Below, piece after piece: positions 1,888-64,000 of a stretch of DNA of 64,000 nucleotides; position 1 is the stretch's first letter, and the number at the start of each line of letters is the position of its first letter. Origin of the DNA: Squalus acanthias (Eukaryota); NCBI GenBank assembly GCA_030390025.1, contig JASTWF010000336.1:186001-250000 (forward strand), read 5' to 3'. Under the pieces are notes generated by a model that was not told the DNA's origin, did not search any database, and saw nothing but the letters and a program-made list of their open reading frames with translations. The translations under genes and the position numbers were made by a program.

Positions 1888-2008
1888 CAACAACAACAAG
1901 AACTTGAATTTATATAGCGCCTTTAAGGGAATCAATCGTCCCAATGAGCTTGACAGGAGCGTTATCAAAGAAACATTGACACCGAGACAGATAAGGAGAT
2001 ATTAGGAG
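1888..2008 (-). mobile_element. Probable L2-type LINE/SINE 3' end fragment
   Basis: (CAA)n followed by TTTATATAGCGCCTTTAA, resembling the reverse complement of L2-type 3' tails; recognised from memory only. Confidence 0.45.
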
Positions 2009-2050
2009 AGGAGAAAGCCACTCTGGACGCACGTCAGTTGCTGCCAGTGA

Positions 2051-2584
2051 AATATTTTTATTCAAATACAATAATACCTGTGCAACTCATCAATTACATA
2101 GTAAATCCATTACATAGTAAATCCATTACAATCATCCATCACAGTAAAAAAATAAAGCCTTAAAAACAACCTTATAATTAATATAAATACAATGATTACT
2201 TTTACAAATAATCAATAATGTTTACAGTACAAATACCCTTAAGCAATTCCACACAACTTTTTAGATTTAAAATAATAAATCTCAAAGTTAACTCCACATA
2301 AAACAAACCATTTCAACACCAGTGTACAAACACATAGCACCATCATAATCCAATTAAATGCTACAGATAACATTTATTCCAATAAACCAAGAAAACCTGT
2401 TTTACGCCAGTCCTACTGGCATTGTTCATTCGATCATTCGATCATTCATTCAATTGTTCGTTCGTTCATTCAAGCGTTCGTTCTTTCGTTCGATCGAGTG
2501 TAAGTTGCAATATGTATGTCTGAATGCGTGCGTGCGTATCAGTTGTCTAAGTGCGCGCCTGCGTGCGTTCGCTCGAATCGTTCG
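2051..2584 (-). mobile_element. 5'-truncated non-LTR retroelement 3' fragment ('family X') with 16-bp TSD
   Basis: Direct repeat CAGTTGCTGCCAGTGA at 2035-2050 and 2585-2600; minus strand ends in TTGAATAAAAATATT; homologous to the array tail 17351-17641. Confidence 0.8.
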
Positions 2585-2846
2585 CAGTTGCTGCCAGTGA
2601 GTGTTAGAACGACGCGAATCCTGTCCCTGAGAGCGATTTGTTTCCCCAATACTGTATGGAAGGATGGAGAGGAACAGGCTTTTTGAATCTCTGACACGGA
2701 AGTGCTGGTGAGTGGAGAGTTTAATCAGTCTCTGCCTCTCCCCGCTGGGTGAAACATAGAAACATAGAAGATAGGAGCAGGAGTAGGCCATTCGGCCCCT
2801 CGAGCCTGCTCCACCATTCAATGAGATCATGACTGATCATCCAAAT

Positions 2847-5707
2847 TCAGTACCCTGTCCCTGCCTTTTCCCCATTTCCCTTGATCCCTTTAGCTTTAAG
2901 AAATATATCTAACTCCTTCTTGAATATATTTAATGAATTGGCCTCCACTGCCTTCTGTGGTGGAGAATTCCACAGGTTCACCACTCTCTGGGTGAAGAAA
3001 TTCCTCCTCATCTCTGTCCTAAATGGCTTACCCCTTATCTTTAGACTGTGACCCCTGGTTCTGGACTCCCCGACCATCAGGAACATCCTTCCTGCATCTA
3101 GTCTGTCTAGTCCTGTTAGAATTTTATAAGTTTTAATGAGATCCCCTCTCATTCTTCTAAACTCCAGCGAGTATAAGCCCAATCGACCCAATCTCTCCTC
3201 ATACGTCATTTCTGCCATCCCAGGTATCAGCCTGGTGAATCTTCGCTGCACTCACTCCATGGCAAGAACATCCTTCCTCAGATAAGGCGACCAAAACTGC
3301 ACACAATACTCAAGGTGTGGTCTCACCAAGGCCCTGTACAACTGCAGCAAGACATCCTTGTTCCTGTATTCGAACCCTCTCGCTACGAAGGCCAACATAC
3401 CATTTGCCTTCTTAACCGCCTGCTGCACCTGCATGCTTACCTTCAGCAACTGGTGCACAAGGACACCCAGGTCTCGTTGCACTTCCCCTTCTCCCAATCT
3501 ATTGCCATTCAGATAATAATCTGCCTTCCCGTTTTTGACACCAAAGTGGATAACCTCGCATCTATCCACATTATAATGCATCTGCCATGATTCTGCCCAA
3601 TCACCCAACCTGTCCAAATCATACTGGAGTTTTTTGGCATCCTCCTCACAGCACACACGCCCACCCAGCTTTGTGTCATCCGCAAACTTGGAGATATTAC
3701 ATCTCGTTCCCTCGTCTAGATCATTAATATATATTGTGAATAGCTGGGGTCCTAGGACCGATCCTGCGGAACCCCACTAGTCACTGCCTGCCACTCGGAA
3801 AAAGACCCGTTTATTCCAACTCTTTGCCTTCTGTCTGCCAACCAGTTCTCTATCCAAGTCAATACCTTGCCCCCAATCCCATGTGCCTTAACTTTACACG
3901 CTAATCTCTTATGCGGGACCTTATCGAAAGCCTTCTGAAAGTCCAAATACACCAGATCCACTGGTTCTCCCTTATCTATTTTACCAGTTACATCTTCAAA
4001 AAATTCCAGTAGATTAGTCAAGCATGATTTACCTTTTGTAAATCCATGTTGACTTTGTCCGATCCTGTCACTGTTTTCCAAGTGCTCTGCTATTACATCT
4101 TTTATAATGTACTCCAGCATTTTCCCCACTACTGATGTCAGGCTTATCGGTCTATAATTCCCCATTTTCTCTCTACCACCTTTTTTGAATAGTGGGATAA
4201 CATTAGCTACCCTCCAATCCATGGGTACTGTTCCAGAATCGATTGAATTTTGGTAGATGACCAGCAATGCATCTATTATTTCTAGGGCCACTTCCTTAAG
4301 TACCCTAGGATGTAGATTATCAGGCCCTGGGGATTTATCAGCCTTCAATCCTGTCAATTTCGCTAACACCATTTCCCTACAAATACTGATTTCGATCAGT
4401 TCCTCCCTCTCATTAGACCCTATGTTCCCCGACATCTCTGGGAGGTTATTTATGTCCTCCTTTGTGAAGACAGAACCAAAGTATGTATTTAATTGGGCTG
4501 CCATTTCTTTGTTCCCCATTATAAATTCACCTGATTCTGACTGCAAGGGACCTACATTTGACTTCACCAATCTTTTTATCTTCACATATCTATAAAAGCT
4601 TTTACAGTCAGTTTTTATGTTCCCTGCAAGTTTACTCTCATACTCTATTTTCCCCCTCTTAATTAATCCCTTTGTCCTCCTTTGCTGAATCCTAAACTGC
4701 TCCCAATCCTCAGGTTTACTGCTTTTTCTGGCCAATTTATATGTCCTCTCCTTGGATCTTATGCTATTCCAAATTTCCCTTGTTAGCCACGGTTGAGTCA
4801 CCTTTTTTGTTTTATTTTTATGCCAAACTGGGATGAACAAATTCTGCAGTTCATCCATGCGATCTTTGAATGTTTGCCATTGCCTATCCACCGTCAGCCC
4901 TTTCAGTAACATTCCCCAATCAATCCTACTCAACTCGCGCCTCATACCATCGTAGTTTCCTTTATTTAAATTCAGGACCCTAGTCTCCGAGTCAACTACT
5001 TCACTCTCCATTTTAATGAAGAATTCTATCATATTATGATTGCTCCGACCCAAGGGGCCTCGCACAACAAGATTGCTAATTAATCCTTTCTCATTACATA
5101 ATACGCAGTCTAAGATGGCCTGATCTCTAGTTGGTTCCTCGACATATTGGTCCAGGAAACCATCCCGTATACACTCCAGGAATTCCTCCTCCACAGTACA
5201 GTTACTAATTTGGTTAGCCCAATCTATATGTAAATTAAAGTCACCCATGATAACTGCTGTGCCATTATTGCACGCTTCTCTAATTTCCCTTTTAATGCCA
5301 TCCCCAACATCCGCATTACTGTTTGGGGGTCTGTATACCACTCCCACTAACGTTTTCTGCCCCATGGTATTTCTCAGTTCTACCCATACAGATTCCACAT
5401 CATCAGAGCTAATAGCCTTCCTTACAATTGTGTGAATCCCCTCTTTAACCAGCAATGCTACCCCACCTCCTTTTCCTTTTTGCCTATCTTTCCTGAATAT
5501 TGAATACCCCTGGATGTTGAGTTTCCAGCCTTGGTCACCCTGCAGCCATGTTTCCGTAATCCCAATCATATCATATTCGTTTACCTCTATTTGCGCAGCT
5601 AATTCATCCACCTTATTACGAATGCTCCTCGCATAAAGACACAAAGCCTTCAGGCTTGTTTTTTTAATGCTCTTAGACCTTTTCGAATTATTATTTACTG
5701 TGGCCAT
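2847..5707 (-). pseudogene. CR1 ORF2 (APE endonuclease + reverse transcriptase), disrupted
   Basis: GITETW, VYRPP, GDFN, YRPISLTS, LDFQKAFDKV motifs; frameshift near 3755 and in-frame stop at 3252-3254. Confidence 0.9.
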
Positions 5708-51688: not shown

Positions 51689-52883
51689 AGTAAGGTAGAG
51701 GTTGCACTATGCTCTTGTCATGAAGATAACCATAGCCAGCCTCAACATCAACGGCAGCAGAGAGGCACGCCGTAGATTTAATAACTTCTCGTCCCTTCGG
51801 GAAGGGAGGCATGCGGTGTGCTTCCTGCAGGAAACTCACACCGTTCCGGGAGACGAGGCCACGTGGCTCCTGGAGTGGCGAGGAGGGGTCAGCATGAGTC
51901 ACCTCTCCAACGTTTCCGGTGGGGTGGCTATCTTGCTGGCCCCGCATTTTCAGCCGGAGATCTTGGGGGTCAAGGAGCATGTGCTGGGCCGCTTGCTCCA
52001 GGTCACTGTTCGTCTGGGGGGCGTGCCGCTCCATTTAGTGAACGTGTACGCCCCCCAGCCCGGTGCGCAGCAAGTGCGCTTCTTCGATGAAGTGTCCGCT
52101 CTTCTGGGCACCGTCGACGTCGGCGAGTGCATCATCCTCGGGGGGGATTTTAATTGTACCCTCGAGGCGAGGGACCGTTCGGGCCCTCCGCGAAGCCTGA
52201 CGGCGACGGTGAAGTTGAGGGACCTGGTCGGGTCCTTCGACTTGGTGGACGTCTGGCGAAATCTCCATCCCGACTCCAGCGCCTTCACTTGGGTGGGGTC
52301 TGGAGGAGGAAGGTCTAGAATCGACCGCCTTTATATTTCCCGGGCGTACGTCTCCTGCGTTCCGGCGGCTTCCATGCGGCCAGTGCCGTGCACGGACCAC
52401 CACCTGGTGTGGGCGGAGCTCGCTCCGTTGCAGGCGCCGGGGGGGTCCGCGTACTGGCATTTTAACAACCTGCTGCTGGAGGACGTGCGGTTCCGGGATT
52501 CGTTTCGCCGGTTCTGGGCCGACTGGAGAAGGAAGCAGGGGGGCTTCCCCTCCTTGAGGCTATGGTGGGACGTGGGCAAGGCTCACGTCCGTCTTTCTGT
52601 CAGGAGTACGCGAAGGGGTCGACCAAGAGGCGGGAGGCCCGGGTCGGGCGATTGGAGAAAGAAGTGCTCGACCTGGAGTCCCGTCTCGGTCAAGTCGTCG
52701 AAGACCCGGCCCTGCGGAAGGTGTACGAAGAGAAGAAGGGCGCGCTGAAGGACCTGCAGCTGGTCGGGTCCCGAGGCGCGTACGTGAGGTCGCGGATCCA
52801 GTTCCTGCGGGACCTGGACCGCGGCTCCCCCTTCTTCTACTCGCTGGAAAAAAGACGAGGGGTCCGTAAGCAGCTCTTGGGGC

Positions 52884-54507
52884 TGTAGAATTCGCAATTA
52901 TCGCGATTTCATTTTAATAAGGAGAGAACACAAGTTTCGTTCAAAAACAGCTTTTATTTCAGCGGAATGCTGTCAGGTTTAAATTGGACACAAGCAGCCT
53001 GTAAAATGGCCGCCGCACCGCGTGACAGAACATTCGAGACTTTTCAGCAGGCAGACAAGATGGCGTTCCAATAAACATTTTTTTGCAGGATCGATAACGA
53101 TTCAGCACAGTGAAGACAATACACAGGACATTATGGGTTTACAGTATAAACATCGATACTGGAATCGGTCTCCCAGGTACAAAGGAAAGCCATCAAGGGC
53201 CCATCCAAAGGACATTAATATGTAAACTCCCAACGGCTCTACGATGAGAGAGCCGTTAGCAGGTAGTTATACAGGACACTTGGAAGCCCCAAACCCCTCC
53301 AGGGGGAACACCGACCGATTTAACAATGGGAGAAATATTAGCAGGTACTCAAACATTCAGGAGTAGCCCCGAAACCCATTAAGGACAGAGATCACCCATA
53401 CAGGACATTTTGGGCGCCAAACCTTAAACAAAAGAATGGACATTGTAGTTGGGCGGGAAACGGAAGAACTGTGCACTATAATTGCAGGCCCAAACCGTCC
53501 ATTCGCTCTCTTGCGCTTGCTCTTTTGCTCTTGACTCTTGCCGCTTGCTGCTGTTATCATCGTGGCTGCTCCTGTGTTTTATCCGGTCGATTCGTAACCT
53601 CGTGGCTGCTCCTGGGTAAAAGACTGTTGCAAAGACCTATGTTGGTAGCTGGCAGCGGAACCGAAGGCCCGGGATGAGATGAGATGAGATGAGAGGAGAA
53701 GAGAAGAAGACCTTATCCATCGCCACGGTCAGTAAATCCCGACCGCGCCTGTAGGTCGATCAGCCAAGTCTTCTCGACAGGAAGTTTTCTTCTTTAACAA
53801 GACATATTGCATCGACGATAACTGGACTGTGCAAACACATCGTATCAGTGATATTGACAACGGTGCTCCTCGACTAAACTGTAAAGTCCACCAACAGAGG
53901 TCTTCACTACAGCGGACGGTCCAGCCGACTGACCGAGCAGCAGAAGCAGTAAACAAGTGGGACCAGGAGATCTCCTGACCAACACGTGGGTGCTGCGGTG
54001 AAAAACATCCGATCAGCTATTCGGGATTTCTCCGAGTTATTACGAGTGGTGAGCATGAGTCTCGGGATCCTACGAAGCTAGTTTTAGGATAGTTATTGAT
54101 AGGGGAGGGTTTAAAGTTTAAGGATATTTGTAATGTGTGCCCTATTTACGTTGTGCTGGTCGTTCCTCGTTTCCCTAAGAGTGATTATAACTGTTTGTAA
54201 GATTGTACTGTCATTAATCTGTGCATATGACATGTATTTCATAATTTTAAGTATCATGCAATAAAGATTTTCCATTTCGTACCGTTCAAACCAAGTCTAC
54301 ATGAGTTTTATCTCCATTACTGCTCTCGCATCTAAGTCCAGTGTCTAGAACCGTAAGGGAGAGTGATTCGAACCACTCACAGGGGTGTCTAGTGTTCCCA
54401 GACTGGCTGGAGACCAGGCCTAGACCCGCACTGACATACAGGCTGCACAGAGCCGCGTGAACCTCACAGGCTACGAGACACGCAGGGTCAGGAGAGGATC
54501 CCTTACA
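52884..54507 (+). repeat. 5' LTR (1624 bp)
   Basis: TGTAGAA...CTTACA; TATAA 53477-53481; AATAAA 54260-54265. Confidence 0.97.
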
Positions 54508-54511
54508 GAAA

Positions 54512-56323
54512 ATGGCGACCGCGGCAGGACACTGGCAGCGAGAGGGTAGTGTGTTAGATTTTGGAATGACTGTACGAAATGTGATGCAGGAAAAGATAGC
54601 GGATTACGTATTTGGAAAGGTTAATCTAACGAAAAAGTGGATAAGCGAACTGTTAGCGGATAAGAGCCCACTAGAGGCAGCTGAAAGGTGGACGGATAGT
54701 AAGGAGCATAAAAAGGCAGTTGAGAAAGCAGTCTGGCTTATGTGCTACAAAAGGCAGGTTCAGATTTCAAACCAGACCAATACAGCGCTAACAGCTCGAA
54801 TCAAGCATTTAGAGGAGGAAATGGAGGAGAAGGTTTCTGGAGGGGAGGTGCTCATTAAGAATTTAAATGAGTTACGCCAGGAAAGCCAGGAAGTCTCCAG
54901 TTACCTTAAAACAAGGGTAGAGTATCTCGAGTGCCAGATCACTGAAGCAAAATTGAACGAGAGTAGGATGAAGGAAAGATGTAACCGCCAAGCTGCCCAG
55001 ATAAGAACTCAAGAAGAGAGCTTAATGGGGGTTAGGTCGGCGTATAAGTTGGCCCTTGAGGATAAGTTTCAGGGAGCCGACCATAGCGCCTGCCAAAAAG
55101 AGATAGAGAGCCTCAAAAAGGCCGTGAATAATGCGAACGGCATGGTGTGCCTTATTAATCCGTTGGCACGCCAGCCGCTAGTAAATGAGAGATTTAGAAA
55201 TTCCCCACCAAGTAAAGCAGAAGAAGTAGTAGCCACTGCGCCCTCCGCGCCACCCAGCTATTCAGAAACCTGGGTTAGGGGGGAAGCAACGGAAGAAACA
55301 AAAGAGCCCGTTGAAAAGGAAGTAGAAAAGGGATCGTTGTATCCAGTAACGGGGATTAAAAGGGGCCCAAGCAGAAACGGTGGGGAAGAACCGGGGGATC
55401 TCCTCGGACAGCTGGTGTTGCCTCACAGTTCACATCAGCTGAGAGCCATGATAAACCACGTAAGGAAGCTGACCGAGATAGACGACCCTTCCGTACATTT
55501 TAGGGAAGTTGAGCAAGCCGCAGCCATCAACGGCTGCGATGATGGGGAGACAGCAAAAATGCTGCTGTTCTCTTTAGATAGCTCGGTCCTTCAGTGTCTC
55601 TCAGGCAATAGCAAGAGGGGTAATAAAAGTTATGAGGAATTGAAAAATGAGGTCCTAGAAGTAGTGGGAGCGAACGACGGAGGTCCGTTTGCTAGAGTGG
55701 GACAGACAGTGCAGATGGAGGGAGAACCCCCGAAGGTTTTTGCCGACAGGCTGTGGCCAGTATATGAGCGCAGCTGTCTAGGTGCGCCCGAGCGCGAAGA
55801 TGTGGAAGGCGCCGCTTTAATTCATTGGCTTAGGTGCATAATAGCCAACAGTTTACCAGCCGTTAGAGAGCAGGCAAAAGCCTGGTTCGATCCCAATGAC
55901 CTCAACCTTACGGAAGAGTCGGTCTTGAATCGACTCACGTTAGGTTACCGTAACATAAGGGGTATGACGACACGTCCCTTTAAGGGAAGAGTACATGAGG
56001 TACGACCCGCAGCCCCGGCTCAAAGAGAGTGGCATCAGGAGGGTAATCGCGCCCCACAGGCAAGTAATGCCTGTTACGGGTGTGGGAAGACAGGGCACTG
56101 GCGCAAGCACTGCAGGAACCCTTGGAAGGATTCCAAGGATAAAAATCCCGTGGTCCGAGCCCAGGCGCCTGTCCCGCCTAAGGAAGCAAAGGCACCCACC
56201 TCTCCCGACGACCTCGAAGCAGTGTTAGGAGCCATGCGCAAGATGGTTTTGAATGCGCGTGGACAGGTGGCGGTCGCAACCGGCCCCGTAGGTGCCGCAG
56301 GACCGTCTAATAGTGCCCCATGA
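54512..56323 (+). CDS. gag: Gag-like polyprotein, 603 aa
   Basis: Position after PBS, coiled-coil N-terminal half, PSAPPSY (55241-55261), CYGCGKTGHWRKHC knuckle (56072-56113). Confidence 0.9.
   Translation: MATAAGHWQREGSVLDFGMTVRNVMQEKIADYVFGKVNLTKKWISELLADKSPLEAAERWTDSKEHKKAVEKAVWLMCYKRQVQISNQTNTALTARIKHLEEEMEEKVSGGEVLIKNLNELRQESQEVSSYLKTRVEYLECQITEAKLNESRMKERCNRQAAQIRTQEESLMGVRSAYKLALEDKFQGADHSACQKEIESLKKAVNNANGMVCLINPLARQPLVNERFRNSPPSKAEEVVATAPSAPPSYSETWVRGEATEETKEPVEKEVEKGSLYPVTGIKRGPSRNGGEEPGDLLGQLVLPHSSHQLRAMINHVRKLTEIDDPSVHFREVEQAAAINGCDDGETAKMLLFSLDSSVLQCLSGNSKRGNKSYEELKNEVLEVVGANDGGPFARVGQTVQMEGEPPKVFADRLWPVYERSCLGAPEREDVEGAALIHWLRCIIANSLPAVREQAKAWFDPNDLNLTEESVLNRLTLGYRNIRGMTTRPFKGRVHEVRPAAPAQREWHQEGNRAPQASNACYGCGKTGHWRKHCRNPWKDSKDKNPVVRAQAPVPPKEAKAPTSPDDLEAVLGAMRKMVLNARGQVAVATGPVGAAGPSNSAP
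54513..54530 (+). promoter_or_regulatory. Primer-binding site, tRNA-Arg(UCG)
   Basis: TGGCGACCGCGGCAGGAC is complementary to GTCCTGCCGCGGTCGCCA, the 3' end of a vertebrate tRNA-Arg-TCG as I recall it. Confidence 0.85.
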
Positions 56324-57484
56324 CTAGAGCCCACGCAGCCTGCCTACCTGTGTCCTTTTAAAAGACACGCACAGGAGGGGGTCTGCGGTGAGGAGGCCAG
56401 GTTAAAAGAGCAGGCCTTGCGGGAGGAGAACGCCCGCTTAATAGGGAAAATAGATGGGCTGGAAGGGCAGCTTAGAGAGCAGGCCCTGCGGGAGGAGAAT
56501 GCCCGAGAAATGGGAAAGTTAGACGTGCTCAGGCTAGAAGGGCAGCTTAGAGAGATAAAAGCAGCCTACAGGGTAGCCAAAAGCCGGGAGCATGAGGTTT
56601 TAAAACAGGATAGAAATCTGCAGCCTCCAGCAGGTGAGATTTCACAGAAACAAGCAGGGGCGGTGGCCTGTCTTAAGGGAGGGGCCAGACCTGCGAGTGG
56701 GGAAGCACAGCCCCAGGTAGGACCACAAGGCACACAGGCAGGCATAGCAGCTTGCATCAGGGGAAGGGACATCCCGGACGATCATGCAGCGTTTTTCTGG
56801 AGTTGGGGGTTAGATGACGAAGAACCCAGGGTACCCTGGTCAGATGAGGATAGTGCAGATGAGCATAGTGATGATGACGGGTGGTTTCAGAGGAACGGTC
56901 TGGAAGGATTGGGGCCGCTAGGTAGAGATCCATACGGGGTGGACACACAAGCTGCAGGTCCCGACAGCAGGAGGAAGGAGCTAGAGGAGGCCGGGCCAGC
57001 CGCTATGTGGTTCCCAGAGGTGTGGCCGCCCGCTTTGAACGTCCAGTCCTCAGGGGAGGCAGAGTTCGCGAGTGAAGGGCCGCCTGCTGGGCCGAGCAGG
57101 GCGGGGCCCCGAACTGCCAGCCCCGAGGTTAGGGAGGCGGAGTCAGCGGAGGCGGGGCTGGCGCCTGTGATGGAACCCCAGGTCATCCCGTTGAAGGTCT
57201 CGGGACCCGGTCCGTCCGTCACGGAGCCCCCGCCCATAGCAATTCCCCGTAGGTCAAGCAGAGAACCCCAGCCCAGGAAGATGTGGTCAGGTCCCCAGGC
57301 TGCCCCAGGACGTAAGTTTCAGGTTAAGATAACCCGGGTAGAGACAGGCCACATCGAAGCAGTAACAGGCTGCGGCAGATCAGAGGAAAGGGTCAGCGCA
57401 GCAACAGGCTGCGGCAGATCAGAGGGAAGGGTCAGTGCCCTCCCACCGTCGGGAAGAGCTCGCAGCAGCCTTCTCAGGATTTAA
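56324..57484 (+). CDS. ORF X: unknown protein in frame with gag, probable readthrough extension
   Basis: 386 sense codons directly after the gag TGA; coiled-coil, acidic and Pro-rich segments; no PR/RT/RH/IN motifs seen. Confidence 0.6.
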   Translation, partial: LEPTQPAYLCPFKRHAQEGVCGEEARLKEQALREENARLIGKIDGLEGQLREQALREENAREMGKLDVLRLEGQLREIKAAYRVAKSREHEVLKQDRNLQPPAGEISQKQAGAVACLKGGARPASGEAQPQVGPQGTQAGIAACIRGRDIPDDHAAFFWSWGLDDEEPRVPWSDEDSADEHSDDDGWFQRNGLEGLGPLGRDPYGVDTQAAGPDSRRKELEEAGPAAMWFPEVWPPALNVQSSGEAEFASEGPPAGPSRAGPRTASPEVREAESAEAGLAPVMEPQVIPLKVSGPGPSVTEPPPIAIPRRSSREPQPRKMWSGPQAAPGRKFQVKITRVETGHIEAVTGCGRSEERVSAATGCGRSEGRVSALPPSGRARSSLLRI

Positions 57485-57768
57485 AGGGGCCGCCCTGAGA
57501 ACGGGCGGCATTGTAAAGTTATTAGTTTAAGGTTTTAAGTTTTAGTTTAAAGTTTTAAGTGGTTTTAATAAGGTTAAGTTTGTAGTGTTTGTAACAGAAA
57601 ACGATAAAATGATGGGAGTTTTAAGGCTAGGTTTAGAGGAAGTCTATTTAGCAAACGTTGAAGTTTACGTGAGGCGAGGTCAGGGGACCCGCTCACCCTT
57701 CACAAAAGCCAGAGACTTTTTGCGAGGCTGGCTACCTCATTCTATCTGATCACAGGAACCAAGGAAGG

Positions 57769-60106
57769 ATGGAACGACTCATAGTATTGCTCGCGGCAAT
57801 CGGATGTGGATTGGCCTATCGGGGCCTCACCAAGGATGTCGTGGTGTTTGGATGTTCCGGGGACACGGCCCCCATCGCGGTGGATGGGACCGGGAGACGG
57901 AAGGCAGAAGGGACCAGCACCTATTTCCACAAGGGAAGGTGGCCAGGATGGCTGGGAACGAACTCAACGGAGTATTCCAGCACATCGGGGTTCGCCTACA
58001 AAGAGACTTCTTTAATGTGCCCCAAAGTACGGATCATCGCACCCAGGATCAGCGTCACCGTCGGCAAACGGATTTGTCTGACCTGCAGTGGGAATGTCCC
58101 ATTGAGCCGATGGTGGTGGCTGCGAAAGCTGAGCAAAACTATGAGGAACTCTTCGGTTGAGTGGGAGCGACTGGGTAATAATACCCATCGGACAATTACG
58201 GGGACAGATGGACAAGTGAAAGTCTGTTGGGACAAATGGTGGGAACCAGATGAGGGGATTTATGTTTGTATGTGGGGGTCAAAGTACGTTTGCCCCAAAG
58301 GCATCTCCATATTCTTTATTAACCAGTGGCAGGATAACGGACAGGGGATGAGGTGGGATGCGAGCACCAGGGGGTGCGGAGCCCCATACTCTCCGATCCC
58401 AGTAAATGCCACTGAGCTCATTACGCGCCCACGCAAAGCCCCGCCCACGATTCCGGTAGTTCTAACTGAGGAAGAAGGGTGCCCTAAAACTAGTAAGGGA
58501 CCCGGGAACGGTTTGGTACTGGTCCCCACAGACCAGATACTATTTCAGGGGGTACATTACGCGGTGGCCTCGGTGATTTTAAATCTCACTGAGGTACGGT
58601 TACCAGAGTGGTGCCCCAAAAAGACGGAACAGTTGTACCAGATCCTGTTGACCAAGATGTTCAGGCAATTTTACGAGTTTGATTTTGCAGAAATCGATAA
58701 GACAAGTTTATACACCGCACCGCAGGAAGTTTTGGACCAAGTAGGGAGGCAAAGAAGGGGTTTGGTGAACGATGCGTTCACTGCTTTTAACACAGGGACA
58801 TCTGTGGTCAACGCTCTAGACAGTGTGGAGCTGCAGACCCAGATTAATGGTTTAAAAACACAGTTAAAGGATATTCTTACAGATGAGAATAAAGTGGTAG
58901 GGTCGGGTCTGCACGAGGACCAAGCCATGACACTACACTTAAAAGAGATTATAGCAGAGCTGGAGAAACAGGCGCGTACGGTAAATGCCCTGATTAGGGA
59001 AGATCGGAATGCATCCGATCAAGCTGCGCAGAACGAGGTGTGCGTGCTTTACGGGGCGTGGTTACTGGGCGAGGGCCGCAGTAAAACAAGGTTTGGTCCC
59101 GTCCTGGATAAGTAACAAACACCTGCGGGCGCTCCACCCTTTTCAGAATGCATTAAGTCCGTGCCAGCTCAGGCTAGCTTCAGAAGCTTACCCAGTCCCC
59201 GTGGACTGCGGACGTTCAAACCATACTATTATGGGAATAGTATTACGCATGCCGGTTTTGGGCAACACAGCAAAGCCCGCCCCGGTATATCGGGTAGAGA
59301 ACATTGGTGTCATTCAGGGGGGAGCCCACATTCGTTATGCAGCGGTTCCACCTTACGTCATCCGCTGGGAGCAAACGATGACAGGTACAGATCTCTCTGG
59401 TTGTCGTGGCAGGGGAGCACACATAATACTGTGCCCCCAGCACTTGAATGCCTTTTTAACACCACAGTGCGGGTTCAGAACGGCTGGCGCCAAGTCCATG
59501 AATTGCACCATGGAGGCAATGGCACAAGATCATGTGCCTCCGCAGGTAGCATACATCGGGGGTGGAACATATTGTGTTACCACTGCAGCGCAACACTACC
59601 AGCATGGAAACCGTAGCCGGTGTCCGGTGAGTGACAGCAGTTTCTGTTTTAAACCCAGGGCTGAAGTTCAAGTAGCACAACAGCGAATTATCCCAATCCC
59701 TGAACCATCCACTGTTCATCTCACAGTAAAAGAGAGTTTTACCGACTTGCAGCGATTTGTCGCACATTTTGGGTACCTCATTCCCCCTCTCCCCGAGCAT
59801 TTAACCAAACTTCTAAAAGCCGTCGCGGTGTCACAAAAGCATTTCTATACATTAGAACAGAAAACCGTCGAGATAGGTACAGACATTTTGGACATAGTGG
59901 TTCCACCGTGGTGGAATCTGTTCACGAATATTGAAGTGCCCTCATGGGTCAGAATAGCCTCCCACATTTTAGTCGTCTGTCAAGTGTTTATTGTAGTATA
60001 CCTTTTGTTCATACATTGTAAAAGAGACAAGCGCCTCACCAAGCATGAGAACACGGGAGAGTGGCGAGAACGTTACGTGCGCGTGCACGATGAGAGCGCA
60101 GTGTAA
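57769..60106 (+). pseudogene. env: Env glycoprotein (signal peptide, Ig-like domain, class I fusion protein, TM), frameshifted near 59080
   Basis: MERLIVLLAAIGCGLA, CLTC..W...DEGIYVC, furin site RQRR 58747-58758, heptad repeat, Cys-rich region, TM ILVVCQVFIVVYLLFI. Confidence 0.85.
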
Positions 60107-60533: not shown

Positions 60534-62157
60534 TGTAGAATTCGCAATTATCGCGATTTCATTTTAATAAGGAGAGAACACAAGTTTCGTTCAAAAACAG
60601 CTTTTATTTCAGCGGAATGCTGTCAGGTTTAAATTGGACACAAGCAGCCTGTAAAATGGCCGCCGCACCGCGTGACAGAACATTCGAGACTTTTCAGCAG
60701 GCAGACAAGATGGCGTTCCAATAAACATTTTTTTGCAGGATCGATAACGATTCAGCACAGTGAAGACAATACACAGGACATTATGGGTTTACAGTATAAA
60801 CATCGATACTGGAATCGGTCTCCCAGGTACAAAGGAAAGCCATCAAGGGCCCATCCAAAGGACATTAATATGTAAACTCCCAACGGCTCTACGATGAGAG
60901 AGCCGTTAGCAGGTAGTTATACAGGACACTTGGAAGCCCCAAACCCCTCCAGGGGGAACACCGACCGATTTAACAATGGGAGAAATATTAGCAGGTACTC
61001 AAACATTCAGGAGTAGCCCCGAAACCCATTAAGGACAGAGATCACCCATACAGGACATTTTGGGCGCCAAACCTTAAACAAAAGAATGGACATTGTAGTT
61101 GGGCGGGAAACGGAAGAACTGTGCACTATAATTGCAGGCCCAAACCGTCCATTCGCTCTCTTGCGCTTGCTCTTTTGCTCTTGACTCTTGCCGCTTGCTG
61201 CTGTTATCATCGTGGCTGCTCCTGTGTTTTATCCGGTCGATTCGTAACCTCGTGGCTGCTCCTGGGTAAAAGACTGTTGCAAAGACCTATGTTGGTAGCT
61301 GGCAGCGGAACCGAAGGCCCGGGATGAGATGAGATGAGATGAGAGGAGAAGAGAAGAAGACCTTATCCATCGCCACGGTCAGTAAATCCCGACCGCGCCT
61401 GTAGGTCGATCAGCCAAGTCTTCTCGACAGGAAGTTTTCTTCTTTAACAAGACATATTGCATCGACGATAACTGGACTGTGCAAACACATCGTATCAGTG
61501 ATATTGACAACGGTGCTCCTCGACTAAACTGTAAAGTCCACCAACAGAGGTCTTCACTACAGCGGACGGTCCAGCCGACTGACCGAGCAGCAGAAGCAGT
61601 AAACAAGTGGGACCAGGAGATCTCCTGACCAACACGTGGGTGCTGCGGTGAAAAACATCCGATCAGCTATTCGGGATTTCTCCGAGTTATTACGAGTGGT
61701 GAGCATGAGTCTCGGGATCCTACGAAGCTAGTTTTAGGATAGTTATTGATAGGGGAGGGTTTAAAGTTTAAGGATATTTGTAATGTGTGCCCTATTTACG
61801 TTGTGCTGGTCGTTCCTCGTTTCCCTAAGAGTGATTATAACTGTTTGTAAGATTGTACTGTCATTAATCTGTGCATATGACATGTATTTCATAATTTTAA
61901 GTATCATGCAATAAAGATTTTCCATTTCGTACCGTTCAAACCAAGTCTACATGAGTTTTATCTCCATTACTGCTCTCGCATCTAAGTCCAGTGTCTAGAA
62001 CCGTAAGGGAGAGTGATTCGAACCACTCACAGGGGTGTCTAGTGTTCCCAGACTGGCTGGAGACCAGGCCTAGACCCGCACTGACATACAGGCTGCACAG
62101 AGCCGCGTGAACCTCACAGGCTACGAGACACGCAGGGTCAGGAGAGGATCCCTTACA
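60534..62157 (+). repeat. 3' LTR (1624 bp)
   Basis: Copy of 52884-54507 at offset 7650; no differences noticed by eye. Confidence 0.97.
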
Positions 62158-64000
62158 GGGCTGCTGGCCGACGACGGATCTCTGGTCTCGGATCCGGAGG
62201 GGATCAGCGCGGGGACCCGGGCCTATTACGGGGCTCTGTTCTCTCCGGATCCGTCCAGCGAGGATGCGCGCAGAGTTTTGTGGGAGGACCTGCCGAAGGT
62301 CGGCCCGGAGGGCGCCGAAGAATTGGACGCTCCGCTAAGTTTGGCGGAGCTGACCGGCGCCCTGCGCCAGCTCTCGAGGGGAAAGTCCCCGGGGCTGGAC
62401 GGGCTGACCGTGGAGTTCCACAGGGCGTTCTGGGACGTCTTGGGGGGCGACTACGCGCGGGTCCTGGGGGAAAGTCTGGCGACCGGGGAGATGCCCCTCT
62501 CTTGGCGCAGGGCGGTTATCGTCCTGCTGTCCAAGAGGGGTGATCTCCGCCTTTTAAAAAACTGGCGCCCGGTCTCCCTCCTCAGCACGGACTATAAAAT
62601 TTTTGCCAGGGCCATGTCTGCCCGCCTCGGCACCGTGCTGGCCCACATGATCCACCCCGACCAGTCCTACACGGTCCCGGGCCGGACAATCCACGACAAC
62701 ATCCATCTGGTCCGGGACCTGGTCCACCTTTCCCAGAGGGCTGGTCTGTCGGTCGCCTTCCTTTCCCTGGATCAGGAGAAGGCGTTCGACAGGGTGGATC
62801 ACGAGTATCTCTTCGGGACTCTGCGCGCATTCGGGTTCGGGACGCATTTCGTCGCCCGGATCCGACTTCTGTACACCGCCGCGGAGTGTCTCATTAAAGT
62901 TAACGGGTCTTTGACGGCGCCCCTTCGCTTCGGGAGGGGGGTGCGTCAGGGATGCCCCATGTCCGGTCAGTTATATGCCGTTTGCGTGGAGCCTTTCCTG
63001 CGCCTCTTGCGGAAGAGGTTGACGGGACTGGCTCTGCAAGGGCCGGGCGTGGAGGTCGTCCTCTCGGCTTACGCCGATGACGTGCTCCTCATGGTCACGG
63101 ATCCCGTCGACCTGCGGAGGATGCGAGAATGCCAGCAGATTTACTCGGACGCATCCTCCGCCAGGATCAACTGGGAGAAATGTTCTGGACTCCTGGTGGG
63201 CCAGTGGCGGGTGGACTCCCTGCCGGAGGAGTTCAGGCCCTTTGCCTGGAGCACAACACACCTCCTCTACTTGGGAGTCTACCTCAGCCCTGCCGAGGAC
63301 ACCTGGCCGGCGAACTGGCAAGAGCTGGAGGCCAAGGTCACCGCTCGCCTAGGACGCTGGACGGGGTTGCTCCGAGTGTTGTCCTACAGGGGTCGAGCGC
63401 TGGTCATAAACCAGCTGGTGGCCGCCATGTTGTGGTACCGGTTGGTCACTTTGATCCCTCCCCCTGCGTTTGTCGCCAAGATACAGAAGATGCTCATCGA
63501 CTTCTTCTGGGACAAAAGGAAGCACTGGGTCTCTGCCGCGGTTCTGTGTCTCCCGCTTAGGGAGGGCGGTCAGGCGCTGGTGTGCCTTCGCACCCAGGCG
63601 GCGACTTTCCGTCTTCAGACGCTGCAGAGGTACCTTTACGTCGAGAATCCTCCCAGATGGTGTGCGCTGGCGACGTATTTCTTCCGCCAGATGCACGGCC
63701 TCAACTACGACACGCAGCTCCTGTTTGTGGAATTGGGCCGCACGCGAGCCTACCTGTGGGAGCTGCCTGTCTTTTACCAGGAACTGCTATGGGTCTGGAA
63801 CCAGGTCGCCTCCAGGCGGAGTTCTCCCCCGTCAGGAGTGGCGGCTCTCCTTCGGGAGCCGCTGTTCAGGAATCCGCACCTCCACGTCCGACGGATCGGC
63901 TGGCTGGCGGAGGGCAGGGCTGTGCCAGGCAAGGTGACCAGAGTCAGGGACCTGCTCGATGGCGGAGGAGCGGGCTGGATGGCGCCAGAGGAGTTGGCGC

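Follow-up and report, generated by a model that had tools for sequence, protein, structure and literature searches.

The subject of this analysis is a 64,000-nt stretch of the genome of Squalus acanthias (hereafter the window; contig JASTWF010000336.1, positions 186,001 to 250,000), which contains a complete long terminal repeat (LTR) element with gag, an open reading frame (ORF) that we call X, and an env-like gene, in this order between its LTRs. X is very probably the in-frame remnant of the family's own pro-pol after an internal deletion, patched with a diverged piece of Gag, and the fusion that it could form with Gag, here termed Gag-deltaPol, would likely be a rare product. The element is an ordinary defective provirus, and no novel gene is carried by it. 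Protease, reverse transcriptase (RT), RNase H and integrase including its SH3-like domain are lost in the deletion, while both LTRs, gag and env are kept; siblings with an open pro-pol are abundant in the source genome.

Origin of the X frame

In the window copy, gag extends over 54512–56320 and is followed by TGA (56321–56323) and CTAG, after which the same frame stays open for 386 codons to TAA at 57482–57484. Gag and X together would comprise 990 residues if the UGA were decoded, and in this the coordinates agree with an earlier reading made from the letters of the window alone (the sequence-only reading). The two remaining forward frames over 56200–57760 contain 28 and 36 stops; the open frame of X is therefore not due to chance.

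The same reading had taken X for a non-Pol protein that replaced pol, a claim that is overturned by the pol-bearing siblings. In L102, L098 and L110, a single TGA after gag is followed by 1496–1500 codons in the gag frame; this pro-pol ORF starts with LEPAQPVYLCP...DTGAS, and its C-terminus is exactly that of X. The gag of L102 is 97% identical to that of the window, and Pfam assigns to its pro-pol ORF the domains RVP (17–111), RVT_1 (245–407), RNase_H (650–793), Integrase_H2C2 (875–933), rve (951–1047) and an SH3-like domain (1182–1224). By BLASTP, X residues 120–386 align in the native frame to residues 1234–1500 of L102 Pol, downstream of the integrase SH3-like domain (250/267 identical, 94%, E 1e-175), and X residues 1–11 align to Pol 1–11. 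The test of X identity thus had a clear outcome: the ORF of the pol-bearing siblings does hold the X tail, in the same frame. At the DNA level, homology between the window and pol-bearing copies ends at 56355 and restarts at 56680, with approximately 3.66 kb of pro-pol in between; both breaks are present in 11 members of set A (20 copies), and 30 members of set B (40 copies) have the 5' one (both sets are defined below).

Between the protease start and the Pol tail lie 108 residues of X, most of which are a diverged stretch of Gag. Their motif IKAAYRVA had been noted as an echo of VRSAYKLA in Gag, and this likeness is true homology, although the window copy alone would not reveal it: BLASTP of window X against Gag found nothing significant (best E 0.64), and blastn and tblastx of the insert against the helper genome gave only marginal matches to the gag coiled-coil (E 0.022 and 0.48–0.78). 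The Gag origin was recognised because L096 carries a longer form of the insert, in which X residues 24–96 match Gag 145–217 of five Gags with 32–40% identity over 73 residues (E 5e-13 to 8e-10). L096 (oriented positions 1926–3140) is an older pol-less copy, whose Gag-like insert is 46 residues longer and whose X is open over 405 codons. The duplicated coiled-coil and the 39-bp duplication described earlier were both recovered in the window copy, the former as a 54-nt duplication at 56407–56460/56476–56529 (80% identity, spacing 69) and the latter as a 39-mer tandem at 57359–57397/57398–57436 (92% identity); acidic, Trp-rich and Pro-rich stretches are likewise seen in the X translation. The 39-bp duplication is, however, not peculiar to X, being present also in the Pol tail of the pol-bearing L102, with a copy number of 1–3 among siblings.

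Judged by these alignments, X consists of four parts: the protease start, a filler of about 12 codons, a diverged piece of the Gag coiled-coil (partly duplicated in the subfamily of the window) and the Pol tail. AlphaFold2, run on 12 sequences, gives a fold that fits this make-up, with one helix at X 22–97 (pLDDT 74–88) and almost all of X 98–386 below a pLDDT of 50 and presumably disordered. A novel accessory or captured gene in place of pol would be suggested by the unusual composition of X and by the outcome of profile and sequence searches: no Pfam family was found above cut-off, and no homologue from outside the family occurs among 1.84 billion representative proteins. A word-index protein search with Gag for longer Gag-Pol proteins found none. 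Nevertheless, 278 of the 386 residues are pro/pol in their native frame (267 of Pol tail and 11 of protease), the coiled-coil is Gag-derived, and only the approximately 12 filler residues and a 27-residue junction variant are left without an assigned origin. A captured gene should be unrelated to gag, pro, pol and env or have a homologue outside the element, and X shows neither trait, which makes the captured-gene reading extremely improbable.

Several observations touch on how the deletion was formed. The filler, which is specific to the pol-less form, resembles an inverted copy of the preceding protease codons and makes up the 3' arm of a predicted hairpin; this inverted likeness may be a trace of deletion formation. 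Different internal deletions are found in L104, L106 and L107 of set A; their 5' break is likewise at the window equivalent of 56355, but their 3' ends differ, and the protease start may be a recurrent breakpoint.

The UGA-CUAG junction

The proposal that the gag-pol recoding signal was retained in a pol-less element holds. TGA CTAG stands at the gag/pro junction in 37 of the 41 pol-bearing copies examined (L091 has CTAA, and L108, L137 and L147 did not match) and in all 40 young pol-less copies; comparison with the helper junction, which had been suggested as a check, showed that pol-bearing siblings carry the same TGA CTAG, behind which pro-pol continues in the gag frame. The deletion derivative has thus inherited the normal gag/pro junction of its family, and UGA-CUAG is not special to X. 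In vertebrate genes and alphaviruses, this context is well established as one that permits readthrough, and 12 nt 3' of the stop were enough for maximal readthrough in four genes (PMC4132726). The first 32 nt 3' of the stop are common to the pol-less and pol-bearing forms, from which low-rate readthrough is inferred; the pol-less junction is thus likely still to be read through at a low rate. In an older pol-less lineage, CTAG has decayed to CTGG (three copies) or TTGG (one copy), together four of the six older copies, which fits a relaxed need for readthrough there.

Gamma- and epsilon-type retroviruses express pol by readthrough (PMC13517186), and the present junction resembles theirs in its single in-frame stop between the Gag zinc knuckle and the protease DTGA, with pro-pol in the gag frame. 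A stop codon and 3' context that are conserved among copies, as expected of a readthrough-type junction, are present too. Other retroviral contexts comprise UAG-GGA with a pseudoknot in Moloney murine leukaemia virus (MoMLV), UGAAGA in SSSV (the salmon swim bladder sarcoma virus), UGACGA in a zebrafish endogenous retrovirus (ERV), UGAAGU in a frog ERV and UAGGGC in snakehead retrovirus (SnRV); UGA-CUAG is absent from the junction contexts listed in section 27 of this 2026 review (PMC13517186). The heptanucleotide is identical to that of the vertebrate genes and alphaviruses, but those sites lie in cellular genes or at alphavirus nsP3/nsP4 junctions (PMC4132726), and the present junction is known from sequence. 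In this family, a readthrough motif described in vertebrate genes and alphaviruses occupies the gag/pro junction of a retrovirus.

At the helper junctions of the present family, folding gave no support for a downstream structure: in a consensus computed from 20 of them, none of the 39 pairs shows a compensatory change, and the L102 junction folds with a z of +0.75. At the pol-less junction, a predicted hairpin (56330–56392) starts 9 nt after the UGA, with a minimum free energy of -48.7 kcal/mol over 120 nt and a z of -2.25 (3 of 200 shuffles fold as well); its core stem is invariant in the distinct junction variants and shows no covariation, and is thus uninformative either way. The hairpin, together with deletion end-points common to all pol-less copies, would be compatible with a region kept for a cis-acting nucleic-acid role (packaging, export or splicing signals), its open frame being incidental. 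However, the tail is the fastest-diverging segment (mean p-distance 0.17–0.22), unlike a conserved element, and the in-frame bias of its insertions and deletions (below) points to translation; we regard such a cis-acting role as very improbable.

The window stretch is present in 14 public sequencing runs, none of which is on record as RNA. Contigs from four runs with three coded organism labels cover the element, although transcript ends and levels are not readable from contigs. Two contigs bridge the pol-less junction (X9 at 56233–56696 and X5 at 56285–56491), and in one, whose run is presumed to be RNA, positions 54047 and 57755 are joined at GT..AG ends, the shorter side having only 25 letters. 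This joint would be the env splice, with its donor within the LTR and its acceptor 14 nt upstream of the env ATG. It also bears on whether X, or its C-terminal 324 codons from an ATG at 56510, is made from a spliced subgenomic mRNA instead of by readthrough. An ATG-initiated ORF does run from 56510 to 57484, but the sole GT..AG joint lands at 57755, the contigs show no acceptor upstream of X (which contigs cannot show to be absent), and the ATG lies inside a duplicated unit that the older pol-less copies do not have; we find this spliced origin hardly credible.

Helpers, recombination and selection

Relatives of the element were collected with a degenerate pattern scan for the zinc knuckle (CCHC) across the source genome (3.7 Gb), which gave 2796 matches in genomic order, an order in which copies are not ranked by similarity to X. 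Set A consists of 20 copies with variant knuckle motifs and set B of 40 that have the most frequent motif and were picked in genomic order; these genomic-order copies replaced a first sample of 30 loci ranked by similarity to X, which understates X diversity. Eleven copies of set A are pol-bearing (aligned to 56355 and from 56680), six are pol-less and three have other internal deletions, and set B holds 10 pol-less copies and 30 that break at 56355 like the pol-bearing form. Among the 28 pol-bearing copies of set B with a recognisable junction, 21 are open over all 1283–1284 pro-pol codons fetched. Exact junction patterns occur genome-wide 1179 times in the pol-less and 1952 times in the pol-bearing form, many near-identical copies of the window element are present, and all pol-less copies have the same pol-less junctions and insert.

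The two forms do not fall into separate lineages of gag. When the pol-less label, which 17 rows carry, is mapped onto a gag tree of 58 copies, it has to change 15 times (shuffled mean 15.1); the starred branches force at least 11 label changes, and copies with and without pol are intermixed at nearly every level. The tree (sets A and B) has the shape of a ladder, in which short side branches come off a single long backbone; this shape would be expected if an active lineage kept evolving and deposited copies over time. Across 16 pol-less copies, the mean p-distance is lowest in the insert (0.051), with 0.154 in flanking gag and 0.221 in the adjacent tail, and pol-less tails group with particular helpers (window with L102, L095 with L110, and L093 and L099 with L105). 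The simplest reading of this pattern would be that the deletion module originated once and that its carriers then recombined frequently with pol-bearing genomes.

We propose that the element is non-autonomous and that co-expressed pol-bearing siblings would supply protease, RT and integrase in trans; identical LTRs, many near-identical copies and the interleaving of the gag tree all bear on such mobilisation. Pol-less and pol-bearing forms would be co-packaged and recombine often, so that gag, the Pol tail and env would form a shared, selected gene pool and the junction-plus-insert module alone would be private to the pol-less form. This module probably arose once, later than the subfamily splits, and would have spread onto several backbones. 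A small share of ribosomes would likely pass the UGA-CUAG and produce a 990-residue Gag-deltaPol without an enzyme domain, for which a function of its own is possible, though unlikely. X itself would be carried along, and its frame would stay open chiefly as a consequence of its tail being Pol, which the helpers keep in frame.

X is intact in most of the sibling copies sampled: it is open in 30/30 of those chosen by their similarity to X, a biased sample, and in 9/10 pol-less copies of the unbiased sample, the tenth having an insertion of approximately 750 bp. The sequence-only reading had coupled this openness with the expectation of a dN/dS (ratio of nonsynonymous to synonymous divergence) below 1 across siblings; the frame does stay open, but purifying selection on its amino acids like that on gag and env was not found. 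Here we used piN/piS, the corresponding ratio of diversities, which among young repeat copies mixes changes from before and after integration. In the 30 ranked copies, it is 0.15 for the 3' part of gag, 0.09 for the 5' part of env and 1.09 for X. Unbiased pol-less copies give 0.25 for gag (n = 9) and 0.08 for env (n = 8), against 0.85 for X 1–92, 0.69 for X 93–119 and 0.91 for the tail. Shared variants in the 30 copies fall on first, second and third codon positions 6, 6 and 27 times in gag, 4, 2 and 27 times in env, and 13, 7 and 5 times in X, so that the third-position share is 27/39, 27/33 and 5/25, respectively. Against more distant relatives, dN/dS is 0.19–0.26 for gag and 0.07–0.11 for intact env; against the window copy, it is 0.56–1.12 for the tail, alike in pol-bearing and pol-less copies, and 0.43–0.81 for the insert. 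X is thus without purifying selection at the amino-acid level comparable to that on gag and env. The excess of first-position variants in X prompted a search for a hidden alternative frame, which was rejected since all other frames on both strands are closed; the skew itself is not significant (chi-square calculated by hand approximately 4.2, 2 d.f., p approximately 0.12).

Several findings weigh against a merely carried-along X. TGA CTAG is intact throughout the young pol-less copies (30/30 and 10/10), X varies between 373 and 397 codons among copies and is always in frame, and it is open even in three of the six older, diverged pol-less copies (L093 with 372 codons, L096 with 405 and L100 with 347). 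Of the 11 distinct gap blocks found in the tail, 10 have a length divisible by three, compared with 12 of 56 in the adjacent spacer; sliding piN/piS is lowest in the coil core, at 0.30–0.41 for X 31–75, with few sites; and the spread of the module across backbones could mean an advantage. These findings would speak for Gag-deltaPol (Gag-X) as a selected functional protein, acting for instance in cis or in assembly and favouring the pol-less genome, in which the extra Gag-like helix would allow co-assembly with Gag. The number of pol-less junctions genome-wide, the youth of the module relative to its flanks and the precedent of the mouse IAP 1-delta-1 fusion, which acts in cis (PMC6466679), would fit as well. 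On the other side stand the piN/piS values of X, far from those of gag and env in the same copies, and the decay of the motif in one older lineage. In addition, frame-keeping and dN/dS of the tail are the same in pol-bearing copies; since the helpers carry the tail as part of Pol and exchange it with pol-less copies, they can account for most of the frame-keeping signal, which need not be a pol-less one. The open frame of the private insert weighs little, because this insert is too short and too little diverged to decide on a function of X. Taken together, we consider a selected Gag-X unlikely.

A further possibility, which we likewise hold to be unlikely, is that the pol-less module is a selfish add-on, in which the helix and Pol tail of a readthrough Gag-deltaPol bias assembly or packaging towards its own RNA. 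If true, this would explain the spread of a young module by recombination onto many gag/env backbones and its more than 1000 copies beside the helpers.

Genome searches with the Pfam families rve and MLVIN_C were discarded as a route to relatives after returning other ERV families; blastn and tblastn of X against 60 such rve/MLVIN_C loci found nothing for X and only distant env matches. The MLVIN_C loci L067, L075, L076 and L081–L090 belong to another many-copy ERV family, with ORFs of 87, 250 or 253 codons that end in an MLV-type integrase C-terminal domain and with an env-TM-like piece upstream; it looks like a different pol-deleted or permuted family.

Layout of the element and relation to known systems

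The features of the window copy are listed in Table 1. A Pfam search with its gag, X and env found no protease, RT, RNase H or integrase domain. The 3' junction zone of X differs among copies, other pol-less copies having a Pol-derived 'NQCKLY.PGAQG.TT' at X 93–119. Env is a single ORF of 783 codons in 8 of 9 unbiased pol-less siblings, and the gap in the window copy was measured against the sibling L132; as read from the translation, Env shows an RQRR site with a heptad-like stretch behind it. Only 4 nt separate the end of the 5' LTR from the ATG of gag, and the start of gag thus overlaps the expected primer-binding site (TGGCGACC...) at 54505–54535. The element has split ORF2 of a long interspersed nuclear element (LINE), whose endonuclease ORF (51720–52748) matches Pfam Exo_endo_phos. 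This ORF2 (window 51720–52883 and 62158–64000) comprises endonuclease and an RT part in the same orientation as the element, and its frame is continuous through the insertion site when the element is taken out together with one GGGC.

Table 1. Coordinates of the element and its parts in the window
Feature	Position	Strand	Remark
Left target-site duplication GGGC	52880–52883	+	Right copy 62158–62161
5' LTR, 1624 bp, TG...CA	52884–54507	+	1624/1624 positions same as 3' LTR
gag, 603 codons and TGA, CCHC knuckle	54512–56323	+	piN/piS 0.15–0.25 among copies
UGA-CUAG, stop and 3' context of the family's gag/pro junction	56321–56327	+	
ORF X, open frame after the gag stop, 386 codons then TAA	56324–57484	+	
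X residues 1–11, first 11 protease codons	56324–56356	+	DNA homology to pol-bearing siblings stops at 56355
X residues 12–23, filler	56357–56392	+	3' arm of predicted hairpin with the preceding pro codons
X residues 24–92, diverged Gag coiled-coil copy (Gag ~145–190)	56393–56599	+	69-bp internal duplication; one long helix predicted
X residues 93–119, 3' junction zone	56600–56680	+	'LKQDRN...ACLKG' variant in window copy
X residues 120–386 and TAA, Pol C-terminal tail	56681–57484	+	Pol 1234–1500 of sibling L102
Tandem 39-bp repeat (TGCGRSE twice) inside Pol tail	57359–57436	+	1–3 copies among siblings; present in L102
Non-coding spacer before env	57485–57768	+	Possible env splice acceptor near 57755
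env, two overlapping frames in window copy	57769–60106	+	14-base gap near 59081 relative to siblings
3' LTR, 1624 bp, TG...CA	60534–62157	+	Same as 5' LTR

With shared deletion end-points, no enzyme domains of its own and a remnant in the polyprotein frame, the element has the marks of an internally deleted provirus. A known provirus of this kind belongs to the IAPs, a group whose members reach pol by frameshifting. The mouse IAP 1-delta-1 element resembles the present one in that an internal deletion leaves an in-frame gag-pol remnant ORF, and in being non-autonomous, reliant on full-length relatives and present at high copy number (PMC6466679), such reliance being likely for the present element as well. 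In IAP 1-delta-1, however, the deletion takes part of gag, the fusion is the main translation product and env is missing (PMC6466679), whereas in the present element gag is intact, the remnant can be reached only past a UGA, env is retained, and the deletion is spanned by a filler of Gag origin. Moreover, a cis function of the fusion has been shown for IAP (PMC6466679), while the present element is known from sequence alone. The ETn/MusD pair is similar as a non-autonomous derivative mobilised by coding-competent relatives (PMC6466679), as would be the case here; ETn is without coding capacity (PMC6466679), in contrast to the present element, which keeps gag and env under strong purifying selection.

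In summary, our analysis removes a false lead, since the supposedly novel ORF X is composed of parts of the virus itself, namely the protease start, a Gag piece and the Pol tail. What emerges instead is a very young, thousand-copy helper/defective pair of env-bearing ERVs that probably share one gene pool by recombination. Such a pair lends itself, as a natural system, to asking how defective genomes endure alongside their helpers in a germ line.

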